A stretch of 64,000 nucleotides of DNA from Marsupella aquatica (GCA_973895155.1 OZ316891.1:5489708-5553707); one strand, 5' to 3'. Positions 34,111 to 56,844 are shown, counted from the first letter of the stretch. The notes: a model not told the origin generated them from the sequence alone. Numbers and translations are program-made.

Positions 34111-35708
34111 TGTTGTACATTAGTTAGAAATGATGGAAATTTTATAAATTTTAAACTTTTTCTAACTCAAGGTACAATCTAGTTACCTTTTGTAGCAATT
34201 TAGATCAACTGAACACTTTACCTAATGTTATGCTTCATCGGAGGCTATTCTATATTGGACAAGGATCGCGAATATAAATCCTTGCTCTTTACATGCTACC
34301 AAGAAAGAAGACTGGACATCATTGGAGAAGCAATGCAGACTAGAAGATTCAAGAACCGGCCTCATTGGCCTATTTAGTTAAATAGCTATCATGGTCAGAA
34401 AAGTCTCATACTTTTTCAGGAGGTAGTAGTTGCGTAGTAGAATTATCCCTGCAAGTTTCATCTCAAACCGACATGTGGTTTGAAAGTTAGAATTAATTTA
34501 GTTTTGCTGTTTTTTGCATAGCCGCGACTTCGCCGACGCTTTGTGAAGCGTCCCTTGTATTTTTGGACGCTTTGAAAAGCGTCCACCCAAGACCACGACG
34601 CTTTCTGAAACGTCCACCACCCAACCAGTTGTACTCCGATGCTCTGCAATCCACATGAGGAGCGACGCCCACAGAAGAGTCTGCTACCCCGAAGGTGACC
34701 TCGACACTGTGACGCCCACTGAAGCGTCCCGCCCGGAGCCCAGAAAATGGACGCTGCGACCAAAACCTCGAAATTCAGCCGACGCTTTCTGAAGCGTCCA
34801 TAAAAGTCCTTTGTAATTTTGGACGTTTTCTGAAGCGTCCACTATGTTCCCGACACTTAGAAAAATTTTCAGTTTTTGCAATTTTATAACACCGTGCCCC
34901 TTTTACCGATTTATTTGAGGCACTTAGAGATCTCAGAAAAGTCTGAAACTTTACCAGCATAGAGACTATATGTAGTAGAGTACCCTAGAAAAGTTTCAAC
35001 TCATTCCGACTCTTAGTTTAGAAGTCAAAATTAGATTAAAATCACTGTTTATTAGTTTTACCGCAAACACCGACGCTTTGCAAAGCGTCCGCTCAAACCT
35101 CGACGCTTTCTGAAGCGTCCCCTGCATTTTTGACACTTTCAGCAGTGTCCATTCACTTTTCAAGGATGACCGTCATTAAGTTTATTCAAGACCCTTTAGA
35201 TATGAAAGGGCATGTCCTTTCAGTATCTCAGTCTCCTTGGGTTCCTGCTAGCCTATATGAAGTAGAATTTGTGTCATTTTCAAGTGTGAAGAAATAAAGT
35301 AGTGCTTGTGGCATGTGCTGCAGCACTGGAATCACCTTTGCTTGCAAATACAAAGGAATTCTTCTCCCTTCCTTGGTCTGAATGATTGAGAGTTTAGATC
35401 ATTGAAGTAAAATTACTTGTATGAAGTTGAATCTCAGAAGTATGAGGGAATAGATTCCTTAAGTGGTGACAACCCATCTTCTTGAGTTCTTGATGCATAG
35501 TTTTTGGCGTGACATTGCTTGTGCATGGGATGCAAAGATTGTTACTCACCAATTACCTGTGACTTCAATTTGATCATGATGGTGTTTATTATTCGTGACT
35601 CAGAGTACCGACTGGATATCGAAGTGATTGATTACTAGTTTCTTCTGAGTACCTTTGGAAGGAAAAGTTGAGACGTGTTGACGGCATTTTAGTAATCATC
35701 CTAGTACA
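34111..35708. mobile_element. Possible solo LTR carrying GACGCTT-N4-AAGCGTC palindromes
   Basis: TG...CA ends with only a 4-bp flanking match (GTAA). Non-coding. Contains an LTR-type GAAACTTT...AAAGTTTCAACTCATTCC segment and nine short palindromes. Boundaries tentative. Confidence 0.35.
34535..35149. repeat. Nine copies of an 18-bp interrupted palindrome GACGCTT-N4-AAGCGTC
   Basis: Copies at 34535, 34566, 34597, 34711, 34781, 34822, 35072, 35102 and 35132 (some degenerate). Confidence 0.9.
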
Positions 35709-36180
35709 GTAATCCATTCCAAAAATGTTCTTACGGATATACCACCAAAATCACATCAAATGAAGTATTGATGAGAAGTTACCTTGGTGTTTTCCAGACT
35801 CCCTCATCATACCTCAAGATTTCATTGTGTTTTGTTATTTGTTTCCATTTTATTAATTGCATTTACAATGTTAAGCAAACATTCAAATCTATGCCTTGCT
35901 GAGCAATCATAGTAAAAGGCTCAAACCTGTGTTTTTTGTGACCTTAGTCATTCATAAGTGTTAAACGATAGAAAATCATTCATTTCTTGTTCTTCCATGG
36001 GATCGAATACCGAGTTTTGGGCATTAAATGCTGATTTATGTCCTTAATGCAATACTACAATATGTATATGTGTTTCAAAGTGTTAGCATGGTTTTCTTTT
36101 TTGGTTTCATGTAATTGTGCATTCAATGCACTTCATATCATAGAGTACTTGCTTTTGTACACAAACTAAGTAGGTGTACT

Positions 36181-36754
36181 CTACTCCGAAGGCCGCAAAG
36201 AACTTGCAACCTTCTCTTTGAAGACATCAGTCCAACGTGCCATCTGCTCGGCTGTCGTTTTTGCTGCAGTGGTAATTGTTGTGGCCAAAATAACTCCTTC
36301 CTGCTCTTGAATTTTACACTCATGCTCTCGGATCTCAAAATCACGCTGGGCCATTTCAGCACAAGTGTTGGCCATGCTTTTGAAAGTGTCTGTTTGCCGC
36401 TCCCAGACTTGGCTACCTTCCTGTGACAGGGCCCCAAACCCGGTAGTAACTTAGTGATAACTTATAATTGCATATATAAGTAGAAAGACAAGTAGGTGTA
36501 GCAAAAGTGTTTGGATTTTTAATTTTTTTTAGTTTTTGTTAGTTCTAATAAATTGATGCGACAACCGGAGGCCAGAGTTGAGAGGGATGTTGGGCGGAGA
36601 TGGATGACAATGGAGCCATTGAGGGGGTACAAGGAGGCCAAAAGGCAGCCCAAGGACTTGGAGGCCAAGGTGTGGGCATCTTGGAGGGGTGCGGGCTGGT
36701 CGGAGGCTCCACGTAAGGCGCAAAACGGGAAGAATGACCAAAATATAGAAACAT
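36181..36754 (-). pseudogene. Fragmentary spliced ORF (Pro-rich exon plus coiled-coil exon); possible C-terminus of the Harbinger-2 partner protein
   Basis: HSSRFAPY..PWPPSPW exon and MANTCAEMAQRDFEIREHECKIQEQE exon, convergent with the 32683-34029 transposase. No Myb domain visible. Confidence 0.35.
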
Positions 36755-36886
36755 TGAAACTTAAAACAGACGTTGTTGCGCTAGTACTATTCCAAACATG
36801 GTCATGTTTGGATTCATTTTGAAGCCCTCAATGAGCCCCATGCAAAATTGAGGTTCTCTAGTTGATTTTAGGTCTATATCAAACAG

Positions 36887-38406
36887 TGACATCTCAAGGG
36901 AACTCAACGCCTGTAAAACGGTAAACTAGACAATCTTGGAGTAGGGATGGTGGGAGGGCCCTTAGAAGGAAGGGACTCCCACAATTTCCCTTCCTCAATC
37001 CGTAGTTTCCCACAATTTTCCTTCCCCATTCCATAGGAGGGCACTCCGTAGAAGAACACATTCGTAGAAAGGGCCCCCACACTTTCTTCCTCCCCTTTTT
37101 CTCTATTCTCACTTATGAGGTTCCCACCCATTCCTAAACCCTAAACCCTATTGTGCTTGCTTTCAACATGTGTATGGACCTTGGTTGTACGAACATCAGT
37201 TTTTTGGCCATCTCAAAATCAGGAGTCTACGGGCTTTTTGGAAAGAGCTCGCCGAGCTGAATCCAACAATGTGTCACACGACCAAAATGGAGCTAAGACG
37301 AGGGAGATCCAACAGATCACGTTTTTCGAGAATACGGGGGTTTTGAGGCCGTACGCACGTCCGTACTACAGGAGGTCCCGACTTTGCAAGGGAAAGAGGA
37401 GGTAACAGCACATACGGGGAACCATGATCCGTGTTTTGCAAAGTCGGGGCCCCCTGGTGTTGTATGGACGAAATAGAGGGAGACGGTGCCCCGTAAAACC
37501 TTAAATGATCATATCTCGGCCGTTTGACCTCCGTTTTGTGCACCGTTTACGGAGCCGTGATCAGGAAGAGGAGGGGCTCCTCAGATATGTTTTCAGAAGT
37601 GGATTCTGAGAAAATTTTACTTTCGACAATTGTAGGGGACCTCTCCTTTTATGGCGGACCGGTGGTGGCGATCAAGAGGATTGAGACTCGTAGGTAGGGT
37701 AATAATATAGGATAGGAAATGGTGGACTCAAGTGAGTCCTTGTTTAGCGGAGTGGTATTCACTCCAGATGAGAGTGATGGGGAGGCCAACTCATGGGGCT
37801 CAAGCCATGGTACCGTGAGTCATGAGGAAGACTAGGGTGGTCGTACGGACTTGGTCGTACGACCTTTTGATTTTGAAACTTTTTGAAAGTGAGCACTCAA
37901 GGGCTTGTTGGAAAGAGCTCGCGGAGCTGATTCCAACAAGAGGCGGCGCTCCTCAAACGGAGCCAGGATGAGAAAGTTAGAGCCCCGCGAAGTTGATCGG
38001 TACGGGATACTAAAATGACCATAACTTGGTCGTCCGATGTCCGTTTTGGGAGCGGTTTGAGAATTCATGATCAAGAGGAGCAAGGCTACCCAGGGATGTG
38101 CTCAGAGGTGCAATCAGAGTGACACCAAGTTTTGGCAATTGTGGGGTCCCTTGTATTTTTGCGGTTTACGGAGTGATTTTGTAGGGCACCGTCAAAGGCA
38201 CCATCGGCCCCTTGGTTAGGTAGAGTTTAGGGGTATGTGTATGCCGCATAGCGCTAGGTTTTAGTTGACATTTATCTGTTGGTGATAGGATTTTAGGCGG
38301 CACCGCTAGGAGAAAGTGGTGGCATCCAAGTGCCATTGGGTGTTTGGGTGTGTGGGGTTAAGTGGTATTTAGGGGGAGAGCCCCGGAGTAGTGTGGGGGG
38401 AATTCA
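36887..38406. mobile_element. LTR-like or TE-terminal non-coding segment with internal duplication
   Basis: Two copies of GGAAAGAGCTCGC.GAGCTGA.TCCAAC (~37240, ~37910) and of AAATGA.CATA.CT.GG.CGT..TCCGTTTTG (~37503, ~38012). TG..CA ends but no TSD found. Confidence 0.4.
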
Positions 38407-38463
38407 CTTTTAAGTTAGAAGGGAAGGATAGCGGATAGCATTAAACATAGTGACGGACCAAAC

Positions 38464-38844
38464 GAGAAGTGTGACCACGGCGTATCCTGTTTGGGATTCA
38501 ATCTTAAAAAATCCAGTTTTGGCATGACAAAACATAAGAAAATGAGGTTGGATGCGAAGTGGGGTATCCCACTTTGCATTCATCGTCTGAATCCAAACCT
38601 CTCGGTTGGAAAAGGCAGGAAATTCAAGGTTGAATATGAAGTGGGATACCGCATATCTCACTTCGGATTCATTAGTGAATCCCATTAATTTCATAATCGA
38701 AATATAGAAACTTCAGTGTTGAATGCGAAGTGGGATACCCGGTATCCCATTTGGTATTCAACCTATGAATATCAATAAGGTTCGGTCTGAAAGGCAAAGG
38801 TTGAATGCAAAGTGGGATACCGCGTATCCCATTGGGTATTGAGT
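38464..38844. repeat. Palindrome array A: 5 copies of ~45-bp hairpin (GTTGAATGCGAAGTGGGATAC-N3-GTATCCCAYTTNGYATTCAAC)
   Basis: Copies at 38464 (degenerate), 38547 (central deletion), 38629, 38718 and 38800. Followed by splice acceptor TTTTTTGCAG at 38901. Confidence 0.9.
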
Positions 38845-39000
38845 TGCAATAGTTTCTCTGCAATGACAAAAGATATCTTATTGATTGGGAGTTTTTTGCA
38901 GGCTAGGTTCAGAGCAGCACCAACAGAATCCCGTCACTTTTGAGTGACAGACTTATAAAGCTTTAGCTTTCTTGGAGACCTACATTTTCCAGTGAGTTCA

Positions 39001-39327
39001 ATGACGGTCCATACTCAAAACCAAGATAAACGTGCTCGTCTATTGTATAAGAGATTAGTTGAACTCAAAGTGCTTCCTCCTGGATTAGGAGCGGTTTGGA
39101 TGGAAGGCGTAGATCCTCAAGATAGTTTGAATCCGCTCCGAATTGAGTTTTGCAAAAAGAATGAGCAAGGAGTTCCAATTCGGTCAAGGATTTGTTTGAG
39201 TGGTTGTCTGCACCCCGTTGATTCTTCTTGTAATTATTGTCGTGATGATCGTAACAAGTATCATCGATTGGCATACTTGTGTTGTCAGATTTGGAACGAG
39301 GATCCTTGGGTTAACTCTTCCCATTGA
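39001..39327 (+). CDS. Small Cys-rich orphan ORF inside the ParB-MTase block
   Basis: Open 108-codon frame, MTVHTQ...ICLSGCLHPVDSSCNYC...LCCQIW, downstream of the acceptor at 38901. No family recognised. Confidence 0.35.
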   Translation: MTVHTQNQDKRARLLYKRLVELKVLPPGLGAVWMEGVDPQDSLNPLRIEFCKKNEQGVPIRSRICLSGCLHPVDSSCNYCRDDRNKYHRLAYLCCQIWNEDPWVNSSH

Positions 39328-39520
39328 ATCTTCTTGATTCTTGTTGTTGAGTTTCGTTGAGCATTTTTGGCTCACAAATATTTTGCCAATATGTTTTTCT
39401 TTTGATCAAAGAAATAAAAGAATTCTTTTGATCCCTGTTTTGTAGGTTCCTCAGAAAGAGATCTTCTCCATTTTCTTTACTACTCTAGGTATTCCTTTCT
39501 TCTTGTTAAACTGGTTTGGA

Positions 39521-40075
39521 ATGGCCGTCCCTGAGAATCTAATCTTTGCGAGGTTAGTGACCGTATTTGAGAAAGAGAAGAAGAAACAAATTGAGCAGAA
39601 ACATCGACAAACTAAATCCGGACTACTTTTGGATGGACTTCCTGATGAGATTGTTGAAACTTGCATATGGCCCATTTTGAAAGTGTCTTGCATTGAGGAC
39701 AAATTTGATTCATCCAAGATCTCAACTGAAGAAAGACTTGGACGATTAAAAAAAATGGTTTGGCTTGGATCCACTTCAAAGAAATGAAACCAGCTTGTAG
39801 TTTGTACACGAGTATGGGGTCTCCTTTGACTTGCACGAAGCCAGTTTGAGGGATTAAATGAAATGCTTGCTAGCATTCCCCATGGAGACACACTTCAGAA
39901 TGTTCATCTCGCAATTTTTTTTAGGATGGAAACTCCGAATCTTCCCCCAATTGATTTCCTTGGTTTATTTTTGACATCAGAACTAAGTCAATTTCAAGAG
40001 GACTGGCTCAATCTAGAGAAAGATCTGCAAGCCAGATTAGTGGAAATATATGGACAAACTTTAGGGTTAGCTTGA
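39521..40075 (+). pseudogene. F-box-like protein, with in-frame stops
   Basis: LLLDGLPDEIVETCIWPIL ... WLGSTSKK*NQLV fits the F-box pattern LPxE..I..L...VxKxW..L (W replaced by TGA at 39785). Frame continues to 40075 through one more stop. Confidence 0.6.
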
Positions 40076-40377
40076 TTCCCGTTCTTTCAATCATGTTTAG
40101 GTCTGCTCCTCTTGAGCTCCTTGTAAAACTATTTTTCATGAATTGATTTACTATCTTTCGTGGCATTTCGTACCAAACTCATTTACTATCTCGTTGCCAA
40201 TTGAATTCGTACAAGGGTATCCCATATCGGATTGCACCTATAACAAATTTTGCCATATTTCCAACTATTTTCCAAGACTCTTTGGTGCGACTATTTGCCA
40301 CGACTATTTGCTTCGACCTTGCCGCGACTATTTCCCGCGACTAATCTCAGGAGTTAGCCTTGTTCAGGAGGAGAAAG

Positions 40378-40385
40378 TATAAATA
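40378..40385 (+). promoter_or_regulatory. TATA box
   Basis: TATAAATA about 30 bp before a CTCATT initiator-like site, preceded by repeated CGACTATTT motifs (40262-40345) and followed by donor AG|GTGAGA at 40503. Confidence 0.55.
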
Positions 40386-40546
40386 AGAGTGCCCTCCTCA
40401 AAAAGTTACGCTCATTTCTCCTCACTCGCGGTACCTCTATAACTTGCTGAATCCCCAATCTCCATAGATATTCGTATTCACTCGGACACATTCCATTAAC
40501 AGGTGAGAATCATGTAGTCTCCTCAATTTTTGGATCAAACTAGTAG

Positions 40547-40948
40547 GATGAATCCGAAGTGGGATACGCGGTATCCCACTTCGCATTCACTTAGGCCAAA
40601 TTCGCTTTTGAGATTAAAAACGCATGGAGAATCAAGGTTGAATGCGAAGCGAGATACCGTGTATCCCGCTTCGCATTCAACATGAAAATCTCAAGAGTTT
40701 TCTGAATCCTCAACGCGATAAAGGGGTGAATCCGATGTGGGATATGCGGTATCCCGCTTAGCATTCAACACCCAAATCTCAAGATTTCTGAACAAAAGAG
40801 ACGGATAGGAGCGATTGGATACTAAGTGGGATACCGTGTATCTCACTTGGTATTCAACATAGTGATCTTAGGCGTTTCAAAGAAAATAGGCAAAAAGTGA
40901 AACATTGAATGCGAGATGGGATACCGCGTATCCCATCTCGCATTCATA
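40547..40948. repeat. Palindrome array B: 5 copies of 45-bp hairpin at 88-90-bp period, inside a 5'-UTR intron (40503-41027)
   Basis: Copies at 40547, 40637, 40725, 40814 and 40904, with 43-45-bp divergent spacers. Paired substitutions in both arms of copies 2 and 5. Confidence 0.95.
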
Positions 40949-41028
40949 TATACTATTATGGTCTTGTTGCCTTTGACCTCGATCATATTAGGCTTGAAAT
41001 TCTTACATATGGTTTTCTTTTCTTCAGG

Positions 41029-41613
41029 ATGTCGAACAAGTCAAATGCTTCTGGTTCCACGGACTCTTTCCGGCAAGCCATCATTGATGAAATCTGGAAA
41101 AAGGATCTCTATGTGGAGGAGAAATTCCTCAGGAACATGTGGTAGTTGCATGATGCTCATGAGCTTGATCTTCATAGAGCGTATGCTGGCCCAGCCTTAT
41201 GGTTGATTGTTGTGAAGGGTAAGGAGCATTGCCACCAAGGGTTGGTGATTGACACGGCCGAGGCAGACATTGTAGACTCGAAAACACAAAAATTGAAAAT
41301 GGTGCCAATGTTTCTTTGCATTGGTCTTGACAAGACCTTTTCTGTGTTGGTCCTAAACTATGAAAAACTTGATCGAGTCTCGATGAATATATTTCCAGAT
41401 GATTCGATTACCAAGCTTGTGGCGGAGGCACCTGATGTAGATTCATTTTCGTACTGGTGCTTGAGTTATGTCTTCACATCTTGGAAGGTGGTGCGGGACT
41501 TCACCAAAATTATGTATCGTTCAGTGGTAGGGGAAGACTTTAAGCGTTGTCGTGATTTTCTCTTAAGTTATAAAAAATTGTTTGTTTTAATATGCTATAG
41601 ATTATATAAGTAA
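41029..41613 (+). pseudogene. Orphan ~194-aa protein with one in-frame stop
   Basis: ATG immediately after acceptor TCTTCAG|G (41027). MSNKSNASG...RNMW*LHDAHE...YRLYK in a single frame. Family not recognised. Confidence 0.5.
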
Positions 41614-41680
41614 TTTAGTAGTTAGATTATTAAATTTAAACTTTATTAAACTTTTTTAGCTATATTAACGGACTATAGAA

Positions 41681-41925
41681 GTTCCACCAATGCATGTGAG
41701 TAGTTCCACCAACTACAATAATATTCACCAACGCATAGTGGTTCTACCAACGCACAGTAGGTCCACCAGCGCATAGTAGTTCTACCAACGCACAGTAGGT
41801 CCACCAGCGCATAGTAGTTCCACCAGCACATAGTAGTTCTACCAACGCATAGTAGGTCCACCAACGCATAGTAGTTCCACCAACGCATGGTAGTTCCACC
41901 TACTAAAAGTAGTTTCACCAACTAT
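41681..41925. repeat. Minisatellite, 19-bp unit (CCACCAACGCATAGTAGTT), about 12 copies
   Basis: Directly visible tandem array; explains the repetitive antisense ORF 41673-41921. Confidence 0.95.
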
Positions 41926-42017
41926 GAATAGTACTAGCACACTCTTAGGTATTAGATGTTTGACACTTGGCCTTCATCCAAGTGCTTGGGCTTGATCCAT
42001 GCCCTCTTGGTGTGCAC

Positions 42018-42025
42018 TATAAATA
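42018..42025 (+). promoter_or_regulatory. TATA box upstream of the ParB-MTase-Ulp1 gene
   Basis: TATAAATA followed about 30 bp later by CCTCATT, the same layout as the 40378 promoter. Confidence 0.5.
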
Positions 42026-42242
42026 AAGTGGTGAGGGCACTCTCCCCTCATTCCGCAGTGTTTATCATTCAAGGTTGTGAAGCTCTTTTGTGCCTTGAAC
42101 ATAGTAGTGGGGCGTCCTTTGGCCCGGATAGCAAAGGAATGAGTGGTAGATTTATATATGGGACCTTAGGGAATAAGGTTTCTTTGGGAATATAGGGGTG
42201 GGGCGTCCTTTGGCCCGGATAGCGAAGGAATAGAAGAGCCAT

Positions 42243-45200
42243 CATGAATCCAGGAGAGAGAGTTATCCCTGATCTTCCCCTTCGTAATCCATTTTTGATT
42301 AGAGTCCATCTTTTAGACAAACCATCTATGAGGCAACATCTAACCTATCATTTTGGAGCTTAGTTTGCAACTGCTGTTATGGTTTCTAACGAGCCAATAA
42401 TATACCCAGTGGTGTCGTACCGAGAGGAGTGGGAGTGCATCATCTTTGTCTTTTATTGAAGTCATGGATTTGAATAGGAGTCCGAATGATATTCCTGTTT
42501 CATTTTCTCTTGGAGATATTAGGATCATATGTCGTAAGAAAACTAATTTTCGTGATGTGTTGGTCCGCAAGTATGGTGAAATAGGGTTTAACAGTATTTT
42601 AGTTTCACCTGAACCTTTCTTAATACCCACTACCCTTGTTACTAGAATTATCATTTTGATTTTAGTGTAGAACTTATAAGCATGCAAGGTTAACTTCAAA
42701 AGAGCCAACATGCTCTTGCCAGAAAACACGGTCACCCGGACAGCGTCCAGAGAGAACTCCATTGAAGTTGAAGATACACAGGCCAACTAATCCCTCTGGG
42801 ACGGTGGAGGATTCCCAGACAACAACAACAAAAGAGAAGGCAGTCTCCGAGCCGACAAAGAGGAAGAAAGCGCAAGATATCTCTGGTGGAAAATCTAGTG
42901 AACATTTCGGTGCAACTGTCTCAAAAGATGCTGCCAAAAAAAAGATGAAGTTGGATCGATGAGAAATCCGAAAGAGAGTAGTGTCTGCGCCTGCGAGTGT
43001 TGTGTCAACAGCTCCACCTTTGCCTTTGAGATTGGTAGGTGAGATTCCTCCAACTTCTCAAGGTGGGCCATCGATCACATCCAAGGGGAAGGGTCCAATG
43101 ATTGTTGAGAGGAAAGAAGATTTGACGAATAAACTGACTACGGCCCTGCAACGTGAAAAGACGTTGGTTGTAAGGGAAGAAGTGTCTCGCTTAATGGAGA
43201 CAAAAAGAGTTCAGAAGACCACCGTCATTCTGAAAACAACAAACCTCCTGTTGGTCAATGACATGAATGATCAGAACTCCACGTTGGTTCGGACTGTTGA
43301 TCGTTTGCACGTGGAGAATATCAAAACTTTGATGAAGTTGAATCCAACAAATTTCACTACGCCATTTGTGTTGTTTGTTATTCCGGAAGATTGTCCATCG
43401 GTTAAAGATTGGGACCCGGCCAAGGCATCAACCTGGAGATATTGGGTAATTGGGGGTAATCATGGAGCTCGAGCTAAAAGAGAACTGTTTGAGGCTTATA
43501 TGGTCGAGAAATCTTCAATGAACTTCAAGCATGGGTCTATGTAGGGCTTACAAGGGACGATGTTCAAAAACTCAGTATTCAACACAATATTGACCAGGAG
43601 TATCAAAAAAAGATGAACAATATTGATCAAATCCGAACAATGCATAAGGTCTTCCTTGCTCGAGGCATGCAAAACACAAAAGAGACTCGAGAGGCCTGAG
43701 CGTCGGAGGTATGTTTTGATGGCTTCATTCCAAGGGTTGGAAAAACACTGAAGAAGCACGAACCTCTTTTTCAGATATCATTTAGATCTGGAAAAGTTTG
43801 GAACCTCCAAGACCATCTCTTTGACATGTGGAATAGATTCGAGATAAAGGGGCAGAACAAACAAAAATCCCCGGTGAAGATACTGAAAAAAGGGAAGCGA
43901 AAGGCCACGCCCGTCGTGAAACCTTTGAACAAGCTAGCAAGGGGGCTCGCTTTGACGCCTTGGAGAGCGATCCAAGGGATTGAGCAGGACAGATTTTTGG
44001 AATCCCTTCTTCTTCGAGTCAAGGATCGAATGATCAGTCTTGAGCAGATGGCAAAAGAGGCTGAAAGTTACAAGAAGCTTGTGAAGATCAGTAAACTCTT
44101 TGTACAATTGTCTGGCCAACCAGATTGGACAACCTATAAATAAATGTTTCCAAAGGAGACGTAGTTTTCAGAGCTTGAAAGATGGAGCGGCAAACTCTCA
44201 GATGTGGTAAGTTATTCAAACGTGCGTTTCGAAGGTTGAATACCGAATGGGATATACGTATCCCATTTGGGATTCAACCCTCATTTTTGGCTCATTCATG
44301 TTCTTTCTTTGAGTTTCCTTCCTGGGTTTTGGTTGTCTTAGCGTTGTTTCTTTGATTTTCCTTGGTTTGAATCTGAAGGGGGATACGGCGTATCCCATTT
44401 GGGATTCAACTCTGGATTTCTATTTTGTCTTTGAGTTTCTTCGGGTGAAATCCGAAATGGGATACCGCATATCCCTTTCGGGATTCAAGCTAGAGTTTTG
44501 GAGGTTACGAGCGTGATTCTCCAGGTTTGTTTTGCGGAATACCTAATGGGATACTCGGTATCCCTCTTGGTATTCAATGCATAGTTTTATCATTGTAACT
44601 TAGGTGTCCTTTTGTTTTGTAGTTGAAAGCCTTCTCAAAGAAGAAGAATAAAACGGATGTCGGAAATGATTTTGAGGAGACTCTAGAGGAGGAGCTCAGT
44701 TTGGATGTTATCCCCCCTGGTTTTAAGAATATAGTTCAAGAAGCTATTGAGACTGCTCAGGCGGAATCAAGCGACCACCGTTGGAAAAATTATGATGGAA
44801 ATTTCATCAACTATACTCTCCACTGTGAAGATGTTTGCGCGCTTGATAGGTTCTTGGAGAAACGGCCTTACACACTTACAATCGCAGACATTCCTTATGG
44901 ATTCAATGCCGCCGGCTCCGAGAATGATGAAATTCCATTTTCGGAGACAGATATTATTGATATGGTCAAATGTTTTGCCAAGGTGACAACTTCACCAATG
45001 TGGAGGTTTGTTGTTATTCATTCTCTGCAACAAAGTGTCTCCGTTTTGAATGCTTTGGGAAAGACATGCAATGTTGGAGTTGAGGCAGGAATTTGGGAGA
45101 AGCCAAATGTACATGCACGTACACCCCTCCGGGAACAGGCTAGCTTGGGCGTTTGAGAACTGGTCCATCGGGTACTATAATGAAGGTGGTATCAGGTCTA

Positions 45201-46754
45201 GGGAAATGTATAATTTTGAGCATGATGAGAAAAGAATCAGCATCATCAAGGTACCTTGTGTTACCAAGAAATGTGTAACACCATTAGGGAAGTAGTGAAT
45301 CTGTATCAGAAGCCGATAGCCCTCGCAGACTAGTTTATCAAACATTTTAGTGAAGAAGGAGATTGGATTGTTGATTTATGTGCCGGAAGTGGGTCTACTT
45401 CGTGTGGGGCTTTGTTGGCAAAGCGACATGTGACAGCCATAGAGTTGAGTGCTCAACAAATAGACTGTATCTAGACTTGATTAGTCACGTTGGATGAATC
45501 ATGGGACTTGAATGAGGAAGCAATTGAGGAGGGTATAGGGCCGATGAGTTTGAGATACAACCACCAATTGGTGGTATGACGAGCACTCTCACCACCAGAA
45601 CTTGCATCATTACAACTGCGGCCGAGAATGATGATGATGTTGATGAGGAGGAGGAGGGGGAAGAGGAAGCAGAAGCTCCACCACTAGATCTTGGCTCATT
45701 CCTTGAGGTGTAGAGATTACTTTGAGATAGTTTGTCGCAAATGAGATTGCCCAAATTGTATATGAACTTCCGGAAATATTGAAAGAGATTTATATGTTCT
45801 TATGTGACAATAATGTCCTTGCAGGATCCATCAAAGGAGGTTATTGAATTGAAATGTGTTCTTCATAGATTTATGCACAATCCTTCTATTGGTCATCTTC
45901 TCAATCAAGAAACACTGGAACAACTTGAACCCGACCAATATTTGGGTGACAAAATTATAGAATTTTACCCAGAGTCCCAAATTGAAGAACATGGAGATCT
46001 TGCTCCAATGGTAAACACATTATCCTCATTTTTTTATCCTTGGATGGTTTCAAGGATTGAAATAGAACCAACACATGAATCTTTAGCAGAATCTATACTG
46101 AAAATGCCAGGTTATTACAAGCCTCCATTTTCCAAGATTCAGGTTATTTTTATGCCAATTCACATGAGTGGGCATTGGAGTTTGGTTTTCATATGTTTGG
46201 ATAGATCTCAATCTTTGATCCAAATGTATCATCTAGACTCACTTGCTGGTCTGCATGAAACTCGTCTAATCGAATCAGCATTGAAAAGATGAAGACTTAA
46301 CTTTATCTTCTACTATTTATTTTTTATATGAGATTATTTATTCATGTGATTATAAATGTCACTGACTAAGGAATTATTTTCAATGACTTGCAGATATTTC
46401 ACAATAGAATGAGAACTATTTTTTGGAAAAGTGTCATTGGGTGTTATGGAGATGTGGAATCCAAAGGTATGTGATTTGTTTCATTTAAAAAAAAAAAATT
46501 AGTTGGAAAATACATTTATGAATCGTACTAAAATACAACATGTTTTTTATCAAGTGCCCCAACAACCAAATACCATAGATTGTGGTTTATTTGTCCTACA
46601 CAACATGGATGAAATTAGAGTTCAATGGAGTAATTTAAAATATATATTCGTAGAGTCTTTATTAACAAAAGATTGGTACAACCTCACACAAGCATGTCAC
46701 CTGAGAAAGGTGATAAGAGATAGAGTTATCAAATTAATGCATGTATCTACATAA
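42243..46754 (+). pseudogene. Spliced multidomain gene: ParB/Srx-like domain + beta-class DNA N6A/N4C methyltransferase + acidic linker + Ulp1/C48 SUMO protease (decayed)
   Basis: ParB-like: LVRTVDRLHVENIK..PFVLFV..YWVIGGNHGARA (GGNH 43452-43463)..AWVYVGLTRDDVQKLSIQHN. Phase-0 intron 44207-44622. MTase: LTIADIPYG (44887-44898), IWEKPN, NLYQKPIAL (45307), SEEGDWIVDLCAGSGST..RHVTAIEL (45373-45393). Phase-0 intron 45708-45824. Ulp1: FMPIHMSGHWSLV (H 46173), HLDSL, VPQQPNTIDCGLFV (C 46581). Several stops and frameshifts; 5' start uncertain. Confidence 0.8.
44235..44578. repeat. Palindrome array C: 4 copies inside the intron joining the ParB-like and MTase exons
   Basis: Copies at 44235, 44366, 44445 and 44534. 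Spacers are T-rich, suggesting inversion relative to the A-rich spacers of arrays A and B. Confidence 0.92.
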
Positions 46755-47540
46755 TTTAATTAATAAATGAAACTCAATCTTCTGAAGATATAGAACCTCG
46801 CTCTAAAATAGCAGCCTCTATAATCTCTATAATTCATGATGTTTCGTAATTAGAGTGCAAAGTAATCTCAATTTGAGTTTGTTATTTAGAGCTTAAAGCT
46901 CTTGGCTATGGCTTATGTCACATTTGTGTGGGTTCTGTGGGGTATGTGGGACCGTTTAGCTTGTTGAATCATTCTCTCATCCCAATAAATTTTTCAACAA
47001 TCATTTTTTGTACATTTGTATTTTTGGTTTCATGGTATACTGTGTTTTGTTTTGATTTTTGCACCCTAGCAAGAGTACAATCTGATTGGATCTATGGGTC
47101 CAGAGGGGCAGTAGAGTCTTTGGTCATTGAAACTCCTTCTTTGGTCATTGAAATTGCTTGTTGTTCAACATTGAACTCTAGTCTGTTTGGAAAGCCCTGA
47201 ACGAGTCAAAAAATTTTATTGAATCATCTTGTGATTATATGTTATCCAACTGTAATGGTTGTGGATCACTCAATGGATCAATATTGTACTCTTCGTCCTC
47301 ATCCTCATCCTCGATATAATCACTTTCAACTCCTACAAAAAAAATAACTATAATTAAATGAGATGATTTTTAATTATAATCATTATTCAAACATCATGAC
47401 TAAGTTGTTTTCTTTGTATTCAACGACTTTAGGTATTTGACAAGTGTGAATCGTGGTTTGTTCTATATTATGTCTCAAATATTTCACAAAACAAACAAGT
47501 TTGGGTTGTACTACTCTTTATGAGTAAGTATTTCTAACTT

Positions 47541-47839
47541 TTTTTGCCCTGAAAGATCTTTTTGAATTCCATTCACAAAGACAACATACAAATAGGTGGC
47601 CCCAAGGGCATCAACCAAAGGTCAGAAGTGCAAAAAGGTCGTGTGAGCCGGCACCAGGAGAGACGCAAAGCCTTTCAAGAGAAAGACAGCTAAACAAGAA
47701 ATTTAACTACCGCAGCGGGAGTAGCACACTCCATGAGACTGGCTAGTGCTAAGGTTCCGGCAAGGTTCCCTTCAATGGATCCGTGATAAACTTACTTTAC
47801 TATCGGTCTAACTGTAGTGAAGCATCTAATCCTATGGAA
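47541..47839 (-). mobile_element. Short non-LTR retroelement insertion (5'-truncated LINE or SINE) with TSD
   Basis: 15-bp direct repeat AAGTATTTCTAACTT at 47526-47540 and 47840-47854. Minus strand ends ...TTTCAGGGCAAAAAAA. Confidence 0.8.
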
Positions 47840-49763
47840 AAGTATTTCTAACTTTGCACCATGATACATTTTAAATATTTAATTTCAAAAATTAGACTTT
47901 GTTTAAGTTCTTGTTCAAACCATGGTTCATGGTTATTTAAATATTCTTATCAATCAATCACTTGATCTTAATCATTTCTATCATTCAATTCAAAACTTTA
48001 TGAATCAAGATTTAGGGTAGTATTATTCAAAAGTCATTCAAAACTCAAGTTTGTAAAAAAGGATAGATGTATTAACCTCCGAGTGGACCAGTTGATACAT
48101 CAATAGGTATTTTGTAGACTTTGTCATCTGACTTGAGAATCTTATCCAATCCATATTTTTTGATTACACGAGTAATACTACTATCACCAAGGTGGAGGGT
48201 ATCTTTGCAAAGCTCAATAATATCCTCTCTCATGTTCTTCTTGGCCAAATTATACTTTATTAATCTGGAAATGTTTTTTACTAAAATACTTCGCAGTTCA
48301 CACGGTGCTTCTTCAAGCTGATCAAGATTAGATTGGGTTGTCAAAGAAAAGAACTGTGTCAAGCTTTCGTGGATTGATTCGTTACAATATGCACGTACTC
48401 AAGTTCCCAATTTCTGCAAAACAATCAGAGTTTTAGTACATGCTTTGAATTGCAATAAATTGGATATATTAAATACACTTTTGAGGTTTTGGGTTTAGAA
48501 AAATACATACCAAAACAGAGTCAAAAAGTTGTTGGTCAAATTTTTGTGGTAATTTTCTCTGCTTCACATTCTTGATTGAATGACACCTTGAAGAATGCAT
48601 GTCACAAAAAGACAATTTGCATGATAAACTGTTAATGCCGAAGATGATGATTTAGATTTTGTCTGGTACTGTGTAATGAACGCAACATAATTTGGGTGAG
48701 CCAAAATGGAACTCATCACCAAAAAAATGTCGATTGCGTTTGAAATGACTACCACAACATGAGATGATTTTGACCCAATGACTACTGCAGCATCAAAAAA
48801 TACTTCATATGTCTTTTGTGTCATGGATACTCCAGTCATCATGGTGGCATCCAAGAATATGAATGTTGTCATGAAAAGAATATGAAATTGAAAAAAAATT
48901 CAATTTTTTTAACATCTTGTATAGTTTCATCCATAAGTTGAAAGTGGAATCTGTCATGTTCAAAATGAAAGGTCCAAGTTCACCTAGTCGGTACTTCTCA
49001 TCTTTGGCCCAAGGAATGACAATCATTGCTGCTTTCATAAAATCTTGTATAAAGACAAGTAAATCATTAAATAAGTATAAACCATGGTTCACACTAATTT
49101 ACTTTCACAATATATTGCATCAAAACAAATGAACAAAACTTTAGATTTTAGAGATTATGATTCATACCCTCCATTTTGAATCTTTGGTGCTGTTTGTTTT
49201 TTAGGGAGGATACTCATAACTTTTCTAAATATCCCTAACCTGCCTTGCAATGAGGAAAATTTGAGATTCATCCATGCTGTGTGATGAACATGATTTAATG
49301 TCTTAGATACTAGTCTCATCATCACCAAGTTCCCAGCCAAATTGTAAGGTGCCCAAAATATGACTACATCGATTGTAAAATATTTTTCGTGAATCTCTGG
49401 AGCCACTGGTTCATTATTCGAAAGTAACCGATAGGCTATAACAGTGTGCTGGCCACCAATTATCCAAAAATGATAATTGTCAATTTGATCAAGGATAGGT
49501 GGATTGTTGAGCATAGATGACGATCGCAACGGCAAGCCCATGAACCATCCAACGCACAATAGTCGACACAAGAGATACGTGGTTCACCTCCTTGAGACTA
49601 CATCCACAGGAACACACAAGAGAGCTTTACTGAACTCTAAGCCCGTCGACTATACCGAGTCTCCATAGTGTAAGCTCTCCCTATCTCTCAAGTGGCTCCA
49701 TAACAATGAGCCTTGGTTCTACCTCTCCAAGCACACGTGCCTCTTATGATATAGTGTGCAACT

Positions 49764-49848
49764 TAGTTGTACCTAATCATATAGTTGTACCTAACCACGT
49801 AGTTATACCAACCCACGTTGTTGTACCAACCACGTCATACCTAACCTA
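49764..49848. repeat. Short ~18-bp tandem repeat (TAGTTGTACCTAACCACG-like), 4-5 copies
   Basis: Directly visible in sequence. Confidence 0.75.
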
Positions 49849-52800
49849 GACATAAGAATAAATACCCAACATGGATGTGTCAGTGGAGTTCCAACATAGC
49901 CAACCTCATTGCTCCTACTCTCGGCCCAAAACACTTGGATCAGGAAACAAACCCGCTTCTCAAAGTTTACCAACGATTAAAATTTCATCGAGTTTGCAAG
50001 ATCTCTTGAGTAATCAGGATCATGACCTCTATATTTTACAACATTGGGTGTAATGTGACATTTTGAATTTTTAATATTAAAAACTTTACTATCAAAGATG
50101 TTTGCTTTCTTATAAGCACCATTGAAGCTCTTGCAAAGATCTCCTATGTTTTCTCCAATGATCAATTTTGGAAGTTTTCTTGTCTCAAACTTGGATTGTT
50201 TCTCTAGTTCCTCCTTCTTCCCAACATGAAATGTTTCTGTAAAAATGCATTTACCCCATTCCAAGATGGATAACACAAAACTCTCAATGGTTGTGCCGTT
50301 TGTGAGTATAGAAACTTTTGGGAAAGTGAGATTCCAAATGACTGAAAATGCCTATGGTGAGAAATTGCAATTGGCTTCCATGTATGTATGGCTAAACATC
50401 CCAAACATCTCTCTAGAAAAACAATAACAATGAGACCTCCTTTAGAGTGAGACCCTCGAGTAGTGCTCAAGTAGTAGACTTCTTTAAGTGAAGTATTTTT
50501 GGAGAATAGGTGGCATACACTCAGAGAAAAGAGACGATGGGTGCAAGTGAATGAATGTATGACATGTTTTAAAGGCATTGGGTTAGAACAATTTTAGTAT
50601 TGCTCCTTGGTTATATCATTTTATTGCAAACCCAAGGTCTACTCATGAAGCCTAAGGTCTTGCATGTTATTAGGAAAACTATAGCAATGCTCCAATTCTA
50701 ACATCAATATTTTTGCAAAAATAAATTAAACACCTGGAAGAAAATAAATTTACACACCGGAGTTCTTTGTGGTCAAATATATGCTACCTGGTTTTTTATG
50801 AGAATCAGATAACATATAAAAAAAGCGCACATCACCTATTCTATAGAATAAATTAGCACTTGGGTAACTTCCAAAATATTTTATAATTCTTGATTTGAGA
50901 ACCCTGCAAGAAAAAAAGTGAACAACCTTTCTAGAAAATAAAGATGGATTTTAGAACGTTGTGTTTTTTGTAAGTGTTAAAAATCCATGTGACAGCCTTG
51001 CATTAAGTGTCCATTACATTGTTGAATATGTTTTTCACTATTGTTTGTTACTAAACATCAAGAAATTAAAAAACTCATGATTATACCAGCAATGCACATT
51101 TTGTACTTGCCTTTCTTTTCATCCCCATGAAATATTGTAGTGGTACATGGTATGGACGAAGGATGCCGATATGCTAATTTGTAGATATTCTTGTATTATC
51201 ATCGTATAGTCGTACGATCGTGGTACGGTTGTACAGACATATCGAATCCAAAATGTCACCAAAATCAAAATTCCGTCACTAAAAAATTGTCAAATACTAA
51301 AGTATTTTTAATTCCTCATCCAGAGTCCAAATAAAAAAACCAACAATACTTTTTCAGCCTAGAATTATGAGAAGAATCTAAATATGTAATCTATTGCCAA
51401 TTCTATTAAACTCAAATTCTAGACTTTAAAGTTTTGAAGTGAATAAAATGCGAGATAAAGTGAATTTAGAGTTGACGAATGTATGATACACTTTATTAAT
51501 GGATTGAAAAACATAAAGCACAAACATAGATACTGTCCAACGAAAAAAACTGACCATTGCATATGTAATTGACAAAAACTCTAAGCAATTATCATCTCTA
51601 CTCTCTACGAGCAAGTAATCAATCAGTATCATATCCGAGTTTGCAGGAATCAAGAGGAAGAGAATCTCATCGTCTTTCTTTGTAGTGTGCTTCAGTAGTC
51701 TCTTGCCACACCACTTTGTAATCTGCAAAATTACAAAGGATGCAATAGAAGGGCATTAAAAGAAAAATTAAAAACTTTGAGAAGTGAATAAGACAAGGAA
51801 AGAAGCTCTCCCCTTAGTACCTGAGATTTTTAGTCCACGTTGGAATGGATAGTCTTTAATCTTGGGGCCCCTTCTTAGGACAGACAGTCATTGATAGTGG
51901 GGCGATAATCTAGTCATTAAGGCAAGGTGTCGGAATAGAATCGTGAGGAGGGGAAAATTGAAGAAAAATAAAGAAACAGAAGGAACATTAGGAACATCGA
52001 GAAAACAAGGAACATAAACAAGCGAATGCGGCATGATTGAAACAATTCAGAGATATTTTCAGTGGCCATTGGTAGTTTTTGAGTCCAGACCTAAGGTGAT
52101 AGTTTCATGTTCTAATAGTCCACCTCGCTGATATAGAGGCGATTAAGGATGCAGGGCAGGTTGAGAGCTTCTGCTTAGCTTTAGTTTGGAATTGCAATTG
52201 TCTGGCTACGAATCCTCATCCACAGAGAGTTGTCCACGTCGGATGTCCTCACAGATATGACACTGGTCAGATGTGTGCAAGATCATTCGAAGTTGGGTCG
52301 CGCTATAGTAGCAATTGTATGCCACCTAATTAGTAAAAATTATCGTCAAATAATTGATTATAATTCTTAAGTCATTTTTTGGCAAAAAATATTACAATGT
52401 GACTGTATTGCGCTAATTCAAACTCAACACCGCAACGTTTATGAAAAATATTTTGTATGTTGTTTGAAAGATCATCTCCTTTGCACATTCTTTCCATGTT
52501 AAGAAAATCATAAATCTAGGTATAAGATCCCAAATTCATCTCCCCATGAAATTTTTGCAATATCAGTTTACATATGTATAACCATACTAAAATACAAAAG
52601 TGATAGAATTTGAAAAGAGAACATTGAGTTTCACTGATAGACTAAAATTTTGGGGGTTTCACTTCCATAGAATTGACACATCACGTGCGACAAAACACAA
52701 ATTGAATAATTTTATTAGTTTTGAGGAAAAACTTATAGAATTTTATATTTTAGGGTATTATGAATCTAATTTGTAATCTAGCTTGTAAAAAATTTAGAGT

Positions 52801-53787
52801 TATTTAAATCAAAATTTGAAAATTTGAAAATTTTATAGGATTAAAAAAACCTTAGTTTTTATATTTTAATGGATGTAGGGCTTAAAGACGTCACAAGTGA
52901 TAAGGACGTCTATGTAATGAGACCCTAAAACCAAAATTAATTCATTTTGTGATAAGATTGATAGAATATCATCTTTTCATTATACCAAAAGAAATCTATT
53001 TTCCTCATGGTAGTTCTTAGAAGAAAGTTTTTGTATTCTTCTCTTTGTGTTGAAAAATCTATAGTACAATGAATAAAAAATTAAATTCTTCTAATTTTGA
53101 AACAAATAACCATCCAATTTTAAAGTGCATCAGTGTTGAAAATGATATCATTTGATAAATGATGTCCAGATCATCTTTGAATAGAACATGTGCTTAATTA
53201 GGTCTTTCATGTTTTTGGAATATTTTTGTTTGGTTTATCATTCATAAAAGAATAATATAACTCATAAATATTGACATCATGTTAAATTATAGCATTACCC
53301 TTCAAATGATTGTCCAACCAACGAGTCATTAAATCAAGTAAAACATCTTTATCCAAAATAGTATAATCTTCTTGAATGTATAATAGATATCATTTACTAT
53401 ATGATTGAATAAAAAGTAATGTATTCTTTTCTTATTGAACACACTTTTTTATTATCATTTATTGGTGTAATATTTGCCTTTGAAAAAGTAATGTAGTGTT
53501 GAAAGGTATATATAATCCATAATTTATATATACTTACAAAGATTTTTACATGTGATAATGACATTTGTGGATAAAAATTGTGATAAAAATTATTTGTAAC
53601 AACAAATTGATGAAAAAATTAAATTTATTTATTTTATTGATATTTTTGGGTAGCATCTAGCGCTAGCAAAAAACTATCTTTGGATATTAGGTTGGCTTTT
53701 ACATCAAGGGACCAGAATAGGTAATTTTCTCCCCCCCAATGGTTAAGGAGAGAAAGTTTAGTTTCTCTATTGTAAGTTACTATGATT

Positions 53788-53852
53788 CTAGGGTTAGGGT
53801 TAGGTCTAGGTTTTAGAGTTAAGATTAAGATTATGGTTAAGTTTAGGTCTAA
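53788..53852. repeat. Degenerate TTAGGG-like 6-mer array
   Basis: CTAGGGTTAGGGTTAGGTCTAGGTTTTAGAGTTAAGATTAAGATTATGGTTAAGTTTAGG. Confidence 0.6.
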
Positions 53853-56844
53853 CGTATATGATAATGTATTCAAGGAAATAAAATGGTTTTGTTTAATGTT
53901 GATGATTAGTTTTATGTGTTCTTGGTTAAGGATAGTTATGAGTTTTGTGAGCTTTCGGGAAATTAATGTATGAATTTTGTCTTTTCGTATTTGATTTTAA
54001 GGTTTTTTTATTAAGATAAGATTTCTTTTTGTTAACTCTAAATGTGGTTAGGTTAATGAAGTTTTTTAAAAACTTTATTTTTAGATTTTTTTTCTTCAAT
54101 CAATGATAGGTTTAGAAAAAATGAAATTTATGATAAATTTATGATTAGGTTTTATTGCGATTCTTGGTTAAGTGCGCGGATTCCTTTGTAAAAAAAATGT
54201 GTCTTTGTTATATGGGTTGCGGTTATGAAGGGTGTTCAGTTATGTGTATTTTCCTTGGTTAAGTATACATTTTTCTTTATCTCTAGATATTTCTTTGACA
54301 AATTTTGCACTTAAGAAGGATTTTGCACTTAGTGCTACTCGAGGTTTTCTTGACTTTTTGCTTGTGATGTTGAGTAATTTGTTTGTGACTGATTCTCTGT
54401 GCTCTTGTTCCCCTTGTTCCAATGCATTTTTTTTGGTCTCCACTTTTACCTCGTTTCCTTGGACTGGTTTCTTTCAATCTTCAATAGAGTTGTAAGTATC
54501 ATCTCCTTGATATTTGCAGCTTTCCTCAATCTCACGTTCCCTTCATTTTCAAAAATAAAGGCCTTCTTTGTTGTTTTGTGCTCGTGCATCAATTATTCCC
54601 TTTTTTCATGGCTTCACTGCTGCGTCGGTGATTATTGTGTTGTCTTCTCATGAGGTTTCCATCCCTCAAATTTTCTTCAATTCTTTTTGCTATCTGGTTA
54701 TGAGTCTCTTTGTAAGGTCGGGCTTCTCTATTGAGTCCTAATGCATCATTTGTTCTCTGTAGGATGTGATGTCGGCCCTTTCAGATCTTCCCTTGATTGA
54801 ATTTTTTTTATTATGCTCTGCTTTTATTCAATCAGGTCTCTTTGATAGGATTAATCGACTTTAACCCAAGCCTTATTTTGTAGAAACATTTGCACACACA
54901 TTCAATCTACAAATCGCTTTCTTGTCTTTCCTTTTTGTCAATTTTTTTTTCTGCTATGGCTGGCCTATTTGTGATTTGGAGTCAATGTGCAATGACTGAG
55001 GTCTGCAATTTTGATTTGGCCGTGTGTTCCGGGCCACTCTCGTGTTTTAATTCACGCTATTTCTCTGTGTTTGGTGTTTTTTTCTCAGTTCTTGGCATCG
55101 GTAAATTGCTTTCTTTTGTGTGGGTGAGACTCTATTAATCAATTCATTGTTATTACAAGATTTGTTGCACAGGTTCACCTGGTTTCTTTATTGTTTAACT
55201 CTTATTCTGGTCGTGAGGGGTCAATGCAATCTATTGATTGCAATTTGCAAATCGTTCTTTCTGTGTTTTTACCCTCTAATTTGTGCTTTAGGTCTCTACT
55301 ATCTTCATTGCTTTATGCTTTCTTCTTCCCTAGTGGTTTAGGTTTTTCATCTAATTGTAGTATCCGTTGTCAATCCGCCATAGTTTTTTTTTCTTTTTGA
55401 TCCCTAAAAGTGTTAGATTTCAAGGGATACCATAGGGAGGTGAGAGTGGTAATAGGAAGTTTCAACCGTGTTGACTCCTTGGTGTCTTTATATATGTGTA
55501 TGGGATAAAGTATTATCCTATGGATACATTTTATCTCCATTGGGTTATTAGATAACTAGACTAGTATGTCTTACCTTATGGTACCTTACAACCTAATATC
55601 ATATTTCATATATCATATGATACCATATCATGATAAGGTCTATTTTATTTCCAAATTTAATAGTTATGATATGTCATCCAATATTAATGAGTGAGTGTGT
55701 GAACATCCTGTCCAATCGTGTACAAAGATTTCTCATTTTTCAAAATTGACCATATGGTTTCAATCTCATAGAATATAGTATTATTGTTAAATATTGATTG
55801 GCATGAATAAGGCACTTGTGCAATAGGCACAACCCATGGGTTCTATTGCTTGGGGCCAAGCCTTTCATAAGGTCTCCCCCTCAAGTTATCATATATTTTT
55901 CTTTTCTGCTTGAATATATGTAGTAGGCATCCATTTGCTTCCATGTGCAATAGGCATAGAGATTTTATGTGCAGTAGGCACCCTAAAGAAAACATCTCCC
56001 CCTGAATTTATGAAATTGATTGGACAATTCTTACGTGGAGAAATTTCCAGTGTTTTTCGTTCTTATATCTTTCCTTCCCCTTTCATGATATGTTTGTTCC
56101 TTAAATCAATTTTGGCATTGCATGAAATGTCATGGTGGGTAAATCGGGTATTTATAAGATTTTTGGGCATATGAAATAGTGTGATTTCTATTATAAAAAA
56201 TATTTATTTTCCTTCTCTAGTTAATATCGTTCTTTATGAGAAGAAATCATTGTGTATTAACATGCAGTAGTTGAGGAGGAACTCCCCTTTGGCTTCTTTG
56301 GTCTTCTGTGTGGCCTCCTTAAGTTTTTTTTTAAGTACTTCTTGTCTGGTCCCTCTCTCAATGCGTCGAATGCAGTCTTTGTGAAATTAATCTGCTCTTT
56401 GTGTCCATTCCACTCCTGATTTTCAGATGGTACTCATTCTCTTTGCAAAACTTGCTTCTCTCTTGCCTTGGGGAATTCTTTGTTGTGCTAGGATTGATGG
56501 GTTATGGTGTTTGTTCTCTTCTAAAAAATTTCTAGAATGCATTTCTTCTGTAGGGTATTGAATCTTCTAGATTTAATTTAAATTCTATTCAATTTTGCTC
56601 GTTCTCTTCTCTCCATTGATCTGTAAATATGAACGCCAATAACTCCTTCTCTATTGTTGTGCTTATGATCAATGGTGAATGTGGACAACCCCAACGTTCT
56701 ATCCAAAACATCACAAATTACCTACAATCTTTGTCGACTAGTCGAGATGATTTCTAGAATGCAAAATATCACACTCTAAATTCCTCAAATAAATTCCATT
56801 CCAAATGAGAAAATAATAAGTGAGCCCCTCATAAGTTTTGATGC

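Follow-up and report, generated by a model that had tools for sequence, protein, structure and literature searches.

The 64,000-nucleotide stretch of Marsupella aquatica DNA analysed here (GCA_973895155.1 OZ316891.1:5489708-5553707, the whole of which we call the window) raises the question of whether a group of decayed genes, among them one that joins a ParB-like protein to a DNA methyltransferase, is the remains of a single mobile element, and what such an element would do with genes of this kind. The window is plant nuclear DNA, and its spliced host genes, judged by their translations, presumably encode a purple acid phosphatase, a dehydroascorbate reductase, two 2-oxoglutarate dioxygenases and PIMT. 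The original prediction, made from the sequence of the window, was of one large multi-gene element at 36887-53650. The block exists and is repetitive, but it is smaller and less complex than first described, with a repeated core that runs from about 38480 to 50300-50770. The stretch ~38480-50300 represents one degraded copy of a repeated family, probably of giant cut-and-paste DNA transposons that here would have lost transposase and ends, and whose ParB-methyltransferase, to judge from its sequence, would have bound and methylated the element's own DNA.

Repetition was judged from assembled contigs of four public runs (X1-X4, from two studies; the window itself may derive from X1 or X2), which were placed on window positions 35500-55400 and 31500-39400. 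The bins 50772-52099 and 52764-54091, which stand at single-copy depth in all four runs and agree with 31500-32555 in X2-X4, served as the single-copy baseline. The 14 core bins (38820-41475 and 42804-49443) reached 2.8-26 times this baseline in X1, 3.8-38 times in X2, 21-74 times in X3 and 59-209 times in X4, these multiples being summed contig depths and not copy numbers. Thousands of contigs, most of them 80-99% alike, contributed to this depth, which was raised continuously in all four runs. The corresponding values were 113-1412 times the baseline for bins 35500-38155, 112-652 times for bins 41476-42803 and 3000-6965 times for bin 49444-50107. On the right, a contig of 4135 bases from another copy matches the window between 48935 and 50275 and diverges thereafter; this departure and the depth place the right end of the repeated core between 50275 and 50771, and not at 53650. 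The flanks had been described as transposon-like on both sides; the left one is a repeat distinct from the element and much more abundant, and the right one is single-copy at 50772-52099 and 52764-54091. At the left the element appears to be cut at about 38480, and a loose contig end lies at 38476 in X4. Neither an empty site for the whole block nor a contig spanning it was found among the contigs of X1-X4.

The ParB-methyltransferase gene lies on the plus strand. Its TATA box, short leader exon and 5' untranslated region (5'-UTR) intron (40503-41027) occupy 40378-41028 and are followed by an N-terminal domain at 41029-41547 (173 codons from the ATG at 41029). This domain is in phase with position 42747 across an insertion at 41548-42742, and it is homologous (E 3.9e-6) to the exon that precedes ParB in L002, one of six stretches (L001-L006) that encode relatives among 109 metagenome stretches examined, all six from one data set; it can be aligned with both L002 and L005, which keep the same gene order of N-terminal domain, ParB and methyltransferase. 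The phase and the homology show that the 194-amino-acid orphan, originally listed as one of five separate genes, is the N-terminus of the ParB-methyltransferase, split by the insertion. Its structural model, built on three sequences, is weak (mean predicted local distance difference test score, pLDDT, 56.5); Foldseek returned no match for it at E 0.001, and the best VIA match, to a SANTA domain (Z 5.8, root-mean-square deviation 3.0, 75 residues aligned), was rejected as below the trustworthy level.

A linker and ParB/Noc-like N-terminal and helical (helix-turn-helix-like) domains follow at 42747-44206, in broken form, and the ParB-like region at 43100-44206 has 34 relatives. The homologous exon of the intact relative L005 has a predicted fold of pLDDT 79.8 that matches Noc with a Foldseek E of 4e-5, and the best nine matches of this model are all Noc or ParB proteins. 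By sequence, L005 scores 19.9 bits against HTH_ParB, under the cut-off of 22.6 bits, and a search of PDB sequences with the ParB profile gave no match. Relatives of the ParB part with a species name (five of 20 looked-up sequences) come from Riccia sorocarpa, Adiantum nelumboides, Diphasiastrum complanatum and, distantly, from abalones. In four abalone species, a protein of 543-548 amino acids (cluster P0043) carries the same ParB-like region and a weak C-terminal match to Tudor, and its conservation suggests a domesticated gene. In a tree of the C-terminal half of ParB (14 rows), P0010 and P0013 fall together with the window, with L002-L005 close by and the Riccia pair at a distance; the tree came with long-branch warnings and was given no weight on the question of origin.

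Across a phase-0 intron (44207-44622) the gene continues with a circularly permuted, beta-order amino-methyltransferase and an acidic tail at 44623-45713, also broken, in which the motifs DIPY, QKP and DLCAGSG can be read in this order. The match to PF01555 (45292-45543) scores 37.1 bits against a cut-off of 26.7. Among 907 candidates, eight relatives of the methyltransferase were found at 43-59% identity. GTDB genomes contained no relative of the methyltransferase alignment; a PDB sequence search with its profile returned M.RsrI and an N4-cytosine methylase weakly (E 0.04-0.05), ranked below a spurious nanobody row. The catalytic motif reads DIPY or DVPY in the window, in all eight relatives and in L006. 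In N4-cytosine enzymes, S opens the strand-4 motif (PMC4738411), so the opening D would favour N6-adenine over N4-cytosine as the product.

Beyond the methyltransferase, exons of a Ulp1/C48 SUMO (small ubiquitin-like modifier) protease lie at 45825-46754 on the plus strand, with profile matches of 38.5 and 24.2 bits at 45783-46751 (cut-off 20.7) and legible H-D-Q-C residues. They are possibly spliced in frame to the methyltransferase or else form a separate gene: a phase-0 splice at 45708-45824 could fuse the two, but from a weak donor, and the reading frame has an end at 45711 too, where the relatives stop. In the DNA of other copies, the joints 45714->45921 (X2) and 45728->45794 (X3) connect the end of the methyltransferase to Ulp1. 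The ParB fold and the N6/N4-methyltransferase and Ulp1 domains are thus confirmed, and so is the description of the genes as spliced and decayed: the splice sites hold, and the N-terminal domain, ParB and methyltransferase parts together contain eight stops and three frame changes. The copy in the window is dead. At 391 of 954 listed places in X1, the window has A/T and the other contigs G/C, with the reverse at 222, as expected for a decaying methylated copy.

A sequence-blind scan found 16 palindromes in 36887-53650, compared with 0-3 in 20 dinucleotide shuffles, and 13 of them form one family of 39-41 bp. They stand in three arrays, each in an intron or directly before a splice acceptor: array 1 at 38481-38842, with a half copy at 38481 and copies at 38546, 38632, 38721 and 38803; array 2 at 40549-40946, with five copies in the 5'-UTR intron; and array 3 at 44237-44576, with four copies in the intron between ParB and methyltransferase. 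The sharing of palindromes and minisatellites by the genes of the block, noted at the outset, is therefore real for the palindromes, whereas both minisatellites lie within long terminal repeat (LTR)-like insertions. The position of the ParB/methyltransferase intron is the same in all six related loci, and palindromes fill it in five of them; further arrays precede the start codon and follow the stop in those contigs that extend so far. The cores of these palindromes fall into three mutually exclusive classes. The window core has 12 copies and none in L001-L006, the core of L001-L004 has 5-14 copies per locus and none in the window or L005, and the L005 core has 17 copies and none elsewhere. 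The outer AAT/ATT arms are similar between classes (10 and 12 of 12 copies in the window, 11 and 13 of 14 in L002, on one side only in L005), and the putative recognition-helix residues of ParB vary between the three classes, a number too small for statistics. In L005 (62-4864) the repeat is lopsided, CCGATC-N4-CATCGG with an outer arm largely confined to one side, and is found in both orientations; the other classes are symmetric.

Palindromes of this kind could also be transposase-binding repeats or hairpins, either RNA stems in the introns or DNA cruciforms whose symmetry is maintained by copying between the arms, and would then not be ParB sites. Consistent with this, several copies carry matching changes in both arms, the covariation score of the 12 aligned window copies (0.181 against 0.135 +/- 0.019) was reached by four of 500 shuffles, and the relatives have arrays between the methyltransferase and the transposase gene as well. 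The covariation is mild, however, since 5-25% of unconstrained alignments attain the same shuffle level and the number of pairs does not stand out (81 of 500). The core letters are invariant, seven of the 19 pairs never vary in the 12 copies, the spacer often fails to pair and pairs worst of all, and the arrays stand in internal introns beside the ParB gene and not only near the ends. Invariant pairs and a poorly pairing spacer would fit sites read by a protein better than hairpins, and we regard the hairpin or transposase-site explanation as unlikely.

Under the explanation that we favour, the ParB-methyltransferase would bind the palindromes in the element's own introns, its helical domain reading each palindrome as a dimer, like ParB on parS, and the fused methyltransferase would then mark the element's DNA with N6-methyladenine. 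This mark, aided by the stripping of SUMO by Ulp1, may keep the element expressed or licensed to transpose. The role of an anti-silencing toolkit, as the original prediction put it, is an interpretation of this kind, and for algal elements of like design it is already in print as a proposal.

No transposase was found in the window block, and a candidate for one lies in three of the related loci. In L001, a convergent gene with a match to DUF7869 (87.5 bits, E 1e-24; Atlas concurs) ends 323 bases past the methyltransferase stop, and L004 and L005 have the C-terminus of DUF7869 at the same place; in these three of the six relatives the distance is 320-370 bases. The contigs of L002 and L003 end less than 360 bases from the methyltransferase stop, and L006 gave no DUF7869 match. 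From a GHTHxDIDxxFS motif, which the L001 protein carries as GHTHxxIDQMFS, we take DUF7869 to be the putative core of a Sola1-type transposase, such as the family of the window would have used too. The literature search returned no paper naming DUF7869 or PF25273, and no longer relative of the DUF7869 piece was found. A stop lies within the conserved motif of the L001 gene (L001:3086-3088 region), its methyltransferase exon being open, and the L001 copy is therefore dead too. The methyltransferase part of the window is 55% identical to P0002, which is itself 89% identical to L001.

That ~38480-50300 is a single large mobile element with DNA-modifying and SUMO-protease cargo is supported by the continuously raised depth, the one palindrome family in three introns, the joints between methyltransferase and Ulp1, and the convergent DUF7869 of the relatives. 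Several observations weigh against the fuller reading as a self-binding transposon of the DUF7869 type. The statement that no transposase, terminal inverted repeat (TIR) or target-site duplication (TSD) is visible holds in all the Pfam, tblastn, phmmer and TIR/TSD scans made: the 411-amino-acid DUF7869 piece of L001 has no tblastn or phmmer match in the window, the six frames of 46801-53702 have no Pfam match to another transposase, and a TIR and TSD scan of 31000-39000 against 46800-61000 gave nothing convincing (11 chance-level 12-of-14 pairs, none at the pair of depth boundaries). In the window, the methyltransferase is followed by Ulp1 and a further gene, at the place where the relatives have palindromes and the putative transposase. 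The composition changes at 45716, from 41-44% GC and a CpG observed/expected ratio of 0.66-0.75 to 32-34% and 0.29-0.39 in the half with Ulp1 and the convergent gene, which also lacks palindromes, so that this half may have a different origin. The most distant locus, L006, has the intron and none of the three palindrome cores, and the six loci amount to one data set and three palindrome classes. Finally, the ParB motif reads GGNH. CTP-binding ParB proteins carry an arginine patch, and a sliding clamp is not supported by a motif without it. Elements of the Sola superfamily have a DDD transposase, a 4-bp TSD and TIRs of 11-1124 bp (PMC10741241).

Part of these observations would be explained if the self-binding ParB-methyltransferase cassette had a different superfamily as its carrier (Zisupton/KDZ, Plavaka/EnSpm or MULE), or if the block were a hybrid with an unrelated Ulp1-bearing element. 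Ulp1 is a known cargo of MULEs and Zisupton elements, it stands behind the methyltransferase in the window and not in L001, L004 or L005, which have DUF7869 there, and the composition step falls in between. In the red alga Bostrychia, moreover, accessory genes of this sort are described as moving between transposon superfamilies, on Plavaka, Mutator, Zisupton and Fanzor elements (10.1101/2025.02.11.637652). On the other side, the nearest relatives of known context (P0002/L001) have DUF7869, other copies also join methyltransferase and Ulp1, and the scan of 46801-53702 revealed no transposase of such a superfamily. Another carrier or a hybrid thus seems rather unlikely, though it is the most serious competitor of the transposon that we propose.

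It is even harder to see the block as a fragment of an endogenised DNA virus, as had also been considered. ParB and methyltransferase folds are frequent in phages and giant viruses, but there is no viral-contig relative of the methyltransferase alignment, of a ParB relative or of the DUF7869 protein, and the structural matches to viral proteins reach only 8-15% identity. With spliceosomal introns, no viral hallmark gene found and relatives that adjoin a DUF7869 gene, a viral origin is extremely improbable.

The remaining open reading frames (ORFs) of the core are less telling. A Cys-rich ORF of 108 codons (39001-39327, plus strand), which is repeated, stands behind the splice acceptor at 38901, and no relative of it was found, Atlas included. 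The decayed ORF at 39446-40075 (plus strand) contains LPDEIV...IWP...SKK, which resembles the F-box motif; its two read-through pieces matched no Pfam family at E up to 10, and the F-box assignment is thereby reduced to a motif resemblance. On the minus strand, a convergent, heavily decayed spliced gene occupies approximately 46800-52330, and everything in it past 50772 has single-copy depth. The claim of a second ParB-like gene survives here as a 22-column match (hhalign 48.6%) around an IIGGQH motif in 49158-49504; the upstream part remained unaligned, and no longer relative of the exon was found. The idea that 48567-48899 is a dead methyltransferase failed.

Several independent repeats adjoin the core or are nested in it. 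As TG...CA termini with a duplication are frequent by chance, and scans for them yielded dozens of chance pairs, we kept only the three insertions backed by contig joints. The first, 1.95 kb and solo-LTR-like (34106-36059, duplication ATATG), splits a decayed PIF/Harbinger element that lies outside the ParB element (transposase at 32680-33870, plus strand; DDE_Tnp_4, 40.9 bits at 33610-33867) and is repeated from about 32690; the form without the insert (joint 34090->36065) occurs in three of the four runs. A single contig (X1 record 2, X3 record 18) carries both 33735-34039 and 36068-36385, which identifies the truncated ORF noted at 36181-36754, beside the left flank, as the 3' end of the tail-to-tail Harbinger partner gene (36181-36421, minus strand). 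It is cut off at 36422 by the next repeat. Harbinger elements have a two-ORF structure (PMC10741241), and the partner here would be Myb-like; the piece itself had no Pfam match. The abundant LTR-like repeat at 36422-38470 starts with TGTG and is non-coding, with no Pfam match in six frames, and the palindrome family starts right after it. The second insertion, 1.19 kb and solo-LTR-like (41548-42742, duplication GCGT/AGCGT), has an empty form in X3 and X4 (joint 41544->42745). It contains a 19-bp minisatellite and a second TATA box (TATAAATA), so that of the two similar promoters first reported, the one at 42018 belongs to the insertion. The third is a 367-bp solo LTR in the convergent gene (49505-49871, duplication TGGAT), with an empty form in X3 (joint 49499->49872) and an 18-bp minisatellite at 49764-49833. 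The dead copy was struck afterwards by LTR-type insertions.

With four neighbours and inserts that are truly independent repeats, no contig across the block and no relatives for the Cys-rich and F-box-like ORFs, one could regard the whole as a chance pile of repeats and pseudogenes without a common unit. Against this stand the single palindrome family, which extends from 38481 to 44576 through three introns, the depth raised throughout the core, and the gene order kept in L002 and L005; a chance pile is accordingly very unlikely.

How far the proposed transposon is new can be seen from known systems. Sola1-1_Ec32 of the brown alga Ectocarpus is a giant DNA transposon with a gene for a 1104-amino-acid ParB-like plus N4C/N6A methyltransferase protein opposite the transposase, 282-bp TIRs and a 4-bp TSD, and nested insertions and transposase-less giants are common in that genome, according to the portion of the paper available (PMC12477816), which does not mention palindrome arrays. 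The likeness, drawn from description, lies in ParB and methyltransferase in one gene, in the convergent layout matched by L001, L004 and L005, and in an interspersed repeat with diverged copies; the window differs in its land plant host, in a copy for which no transposase, TIR or TSD was found, and in the added Ulp1 and further ORFs. The Plavaka (EnSpm) elements of Bostrychia, with their PAG1-3 cassette, combine a PF01555 methylase and a ParB protein with tandem inverted-repeat arrays (PAG2/PAG3), an arrangement for which modification of self DNA was proposed (10.1101/2025.02.11.637652). There, methylase-SET and ParB-2-oxoglutarate oxygenase are separate genes, whereas the window has ParB and methylase in one gene with Ulp1 behind, the class of transposase may differ too, and the ORFs and frames scanned in it gave no SET, oxygenase or EnSpm/Plavaka match. 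With bacterial ParB/Noc (PDB 7nfu, 7ol9, 6sdk), the L005 model aligns over ~280 columns of the N-terminal and helical domains, at 12-15% identity and a TM-score of 0.2-0.35 by query. Arrayed palindromic sites are common to both, and the window differs in GGNH, in the lack of ParA and in sites of ~40 bp, which are bipartite. Bacterial ParB sites measure 16 bp. The Marchantia proteins MpDN4MT1a/b share the beta-class motif order and a land plant host with the window, by description; they are prokaryote-type amino-methyltransferases with TSPPY (4mC) in place of DIPY, are encoded by host sperm genes, and are not described, in the part of the report available, as ParB-fused or as transposon cargo (10.1101/2021.02.12.428880).

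Other features of the window concern neither the ParB element nor its neighbours. An intronless ORF of 301 codons at 19979-20884, presumably the plastid-targeted dehydroascorbate reductase, has no exact counterpart in the protein collection searched. The two paralogous 2-oxoglutarate dioxygenase genes (23979-25180 and 27980-29833) are in opposite orientation and 73% alike across 215 bases. A second, unrelated Harbinger-type element at 224-4168 has a minus-strand transposase (Plant_tran, 267.8 bits at 2400-3689) and, tail-to-tail with it, a decayed partner gene at about 224-1000. The single-copy contigs of X1-X3 break at 52657-52681, where bin 52100-52763 stands at 29-90 times the baseline; this is a short abundant repeat, perhaps a transposon end, with no left end matched to it. 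In the Pfam scan of 53.7-61 kb, which covered three ORFs, a fragment of an Oxa1/YidC-type gene was found at 58009-58706 (60KD_IMP, 39.1 bits, cut-off 35); the DNA around it is non-coding, and the fragment is probably part of a pseudogene. Tandem repeats at 4532-4879 (unit of 128 bases) and 56845-57024 (57 bases) are 94% alike and unrelated to the ParB element, and Rfam gave zero matches in 30000-64000.

The literature search, which did not extend to most subscription papers or to the Bostrychia supplements, where such cases might be listed, gave no land-plant report of ParB-methylase transposon cargo. New are thus the land plant host, the added Ulp1 and the switching of palindromes between families; the surprise is limited, since the basic design has been published and the copy studied here is dead. 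ParB-methylase self-marking has so far only been proposed for algal transposons, and with the window and its relatives the design reaches land plants. Three protein families that each have their own palindrome at the same intron make the idea of self-binding testable by swaps, and the methyltransferase is a candidate enzyme for the disputed adenine methylation of plant DNA. Going further, it is possible, although we put it forward tentatively, that non-seed land plants host giant transposons with a private, bacterial-style self-recognition, in which each family would have its own intronic palindrome, a matching ParB reader and self-written N6-methyladenine, here with a fused SUMO protease in addition; this would give each family its own route round silencing and may be a source of 6mA in plants.

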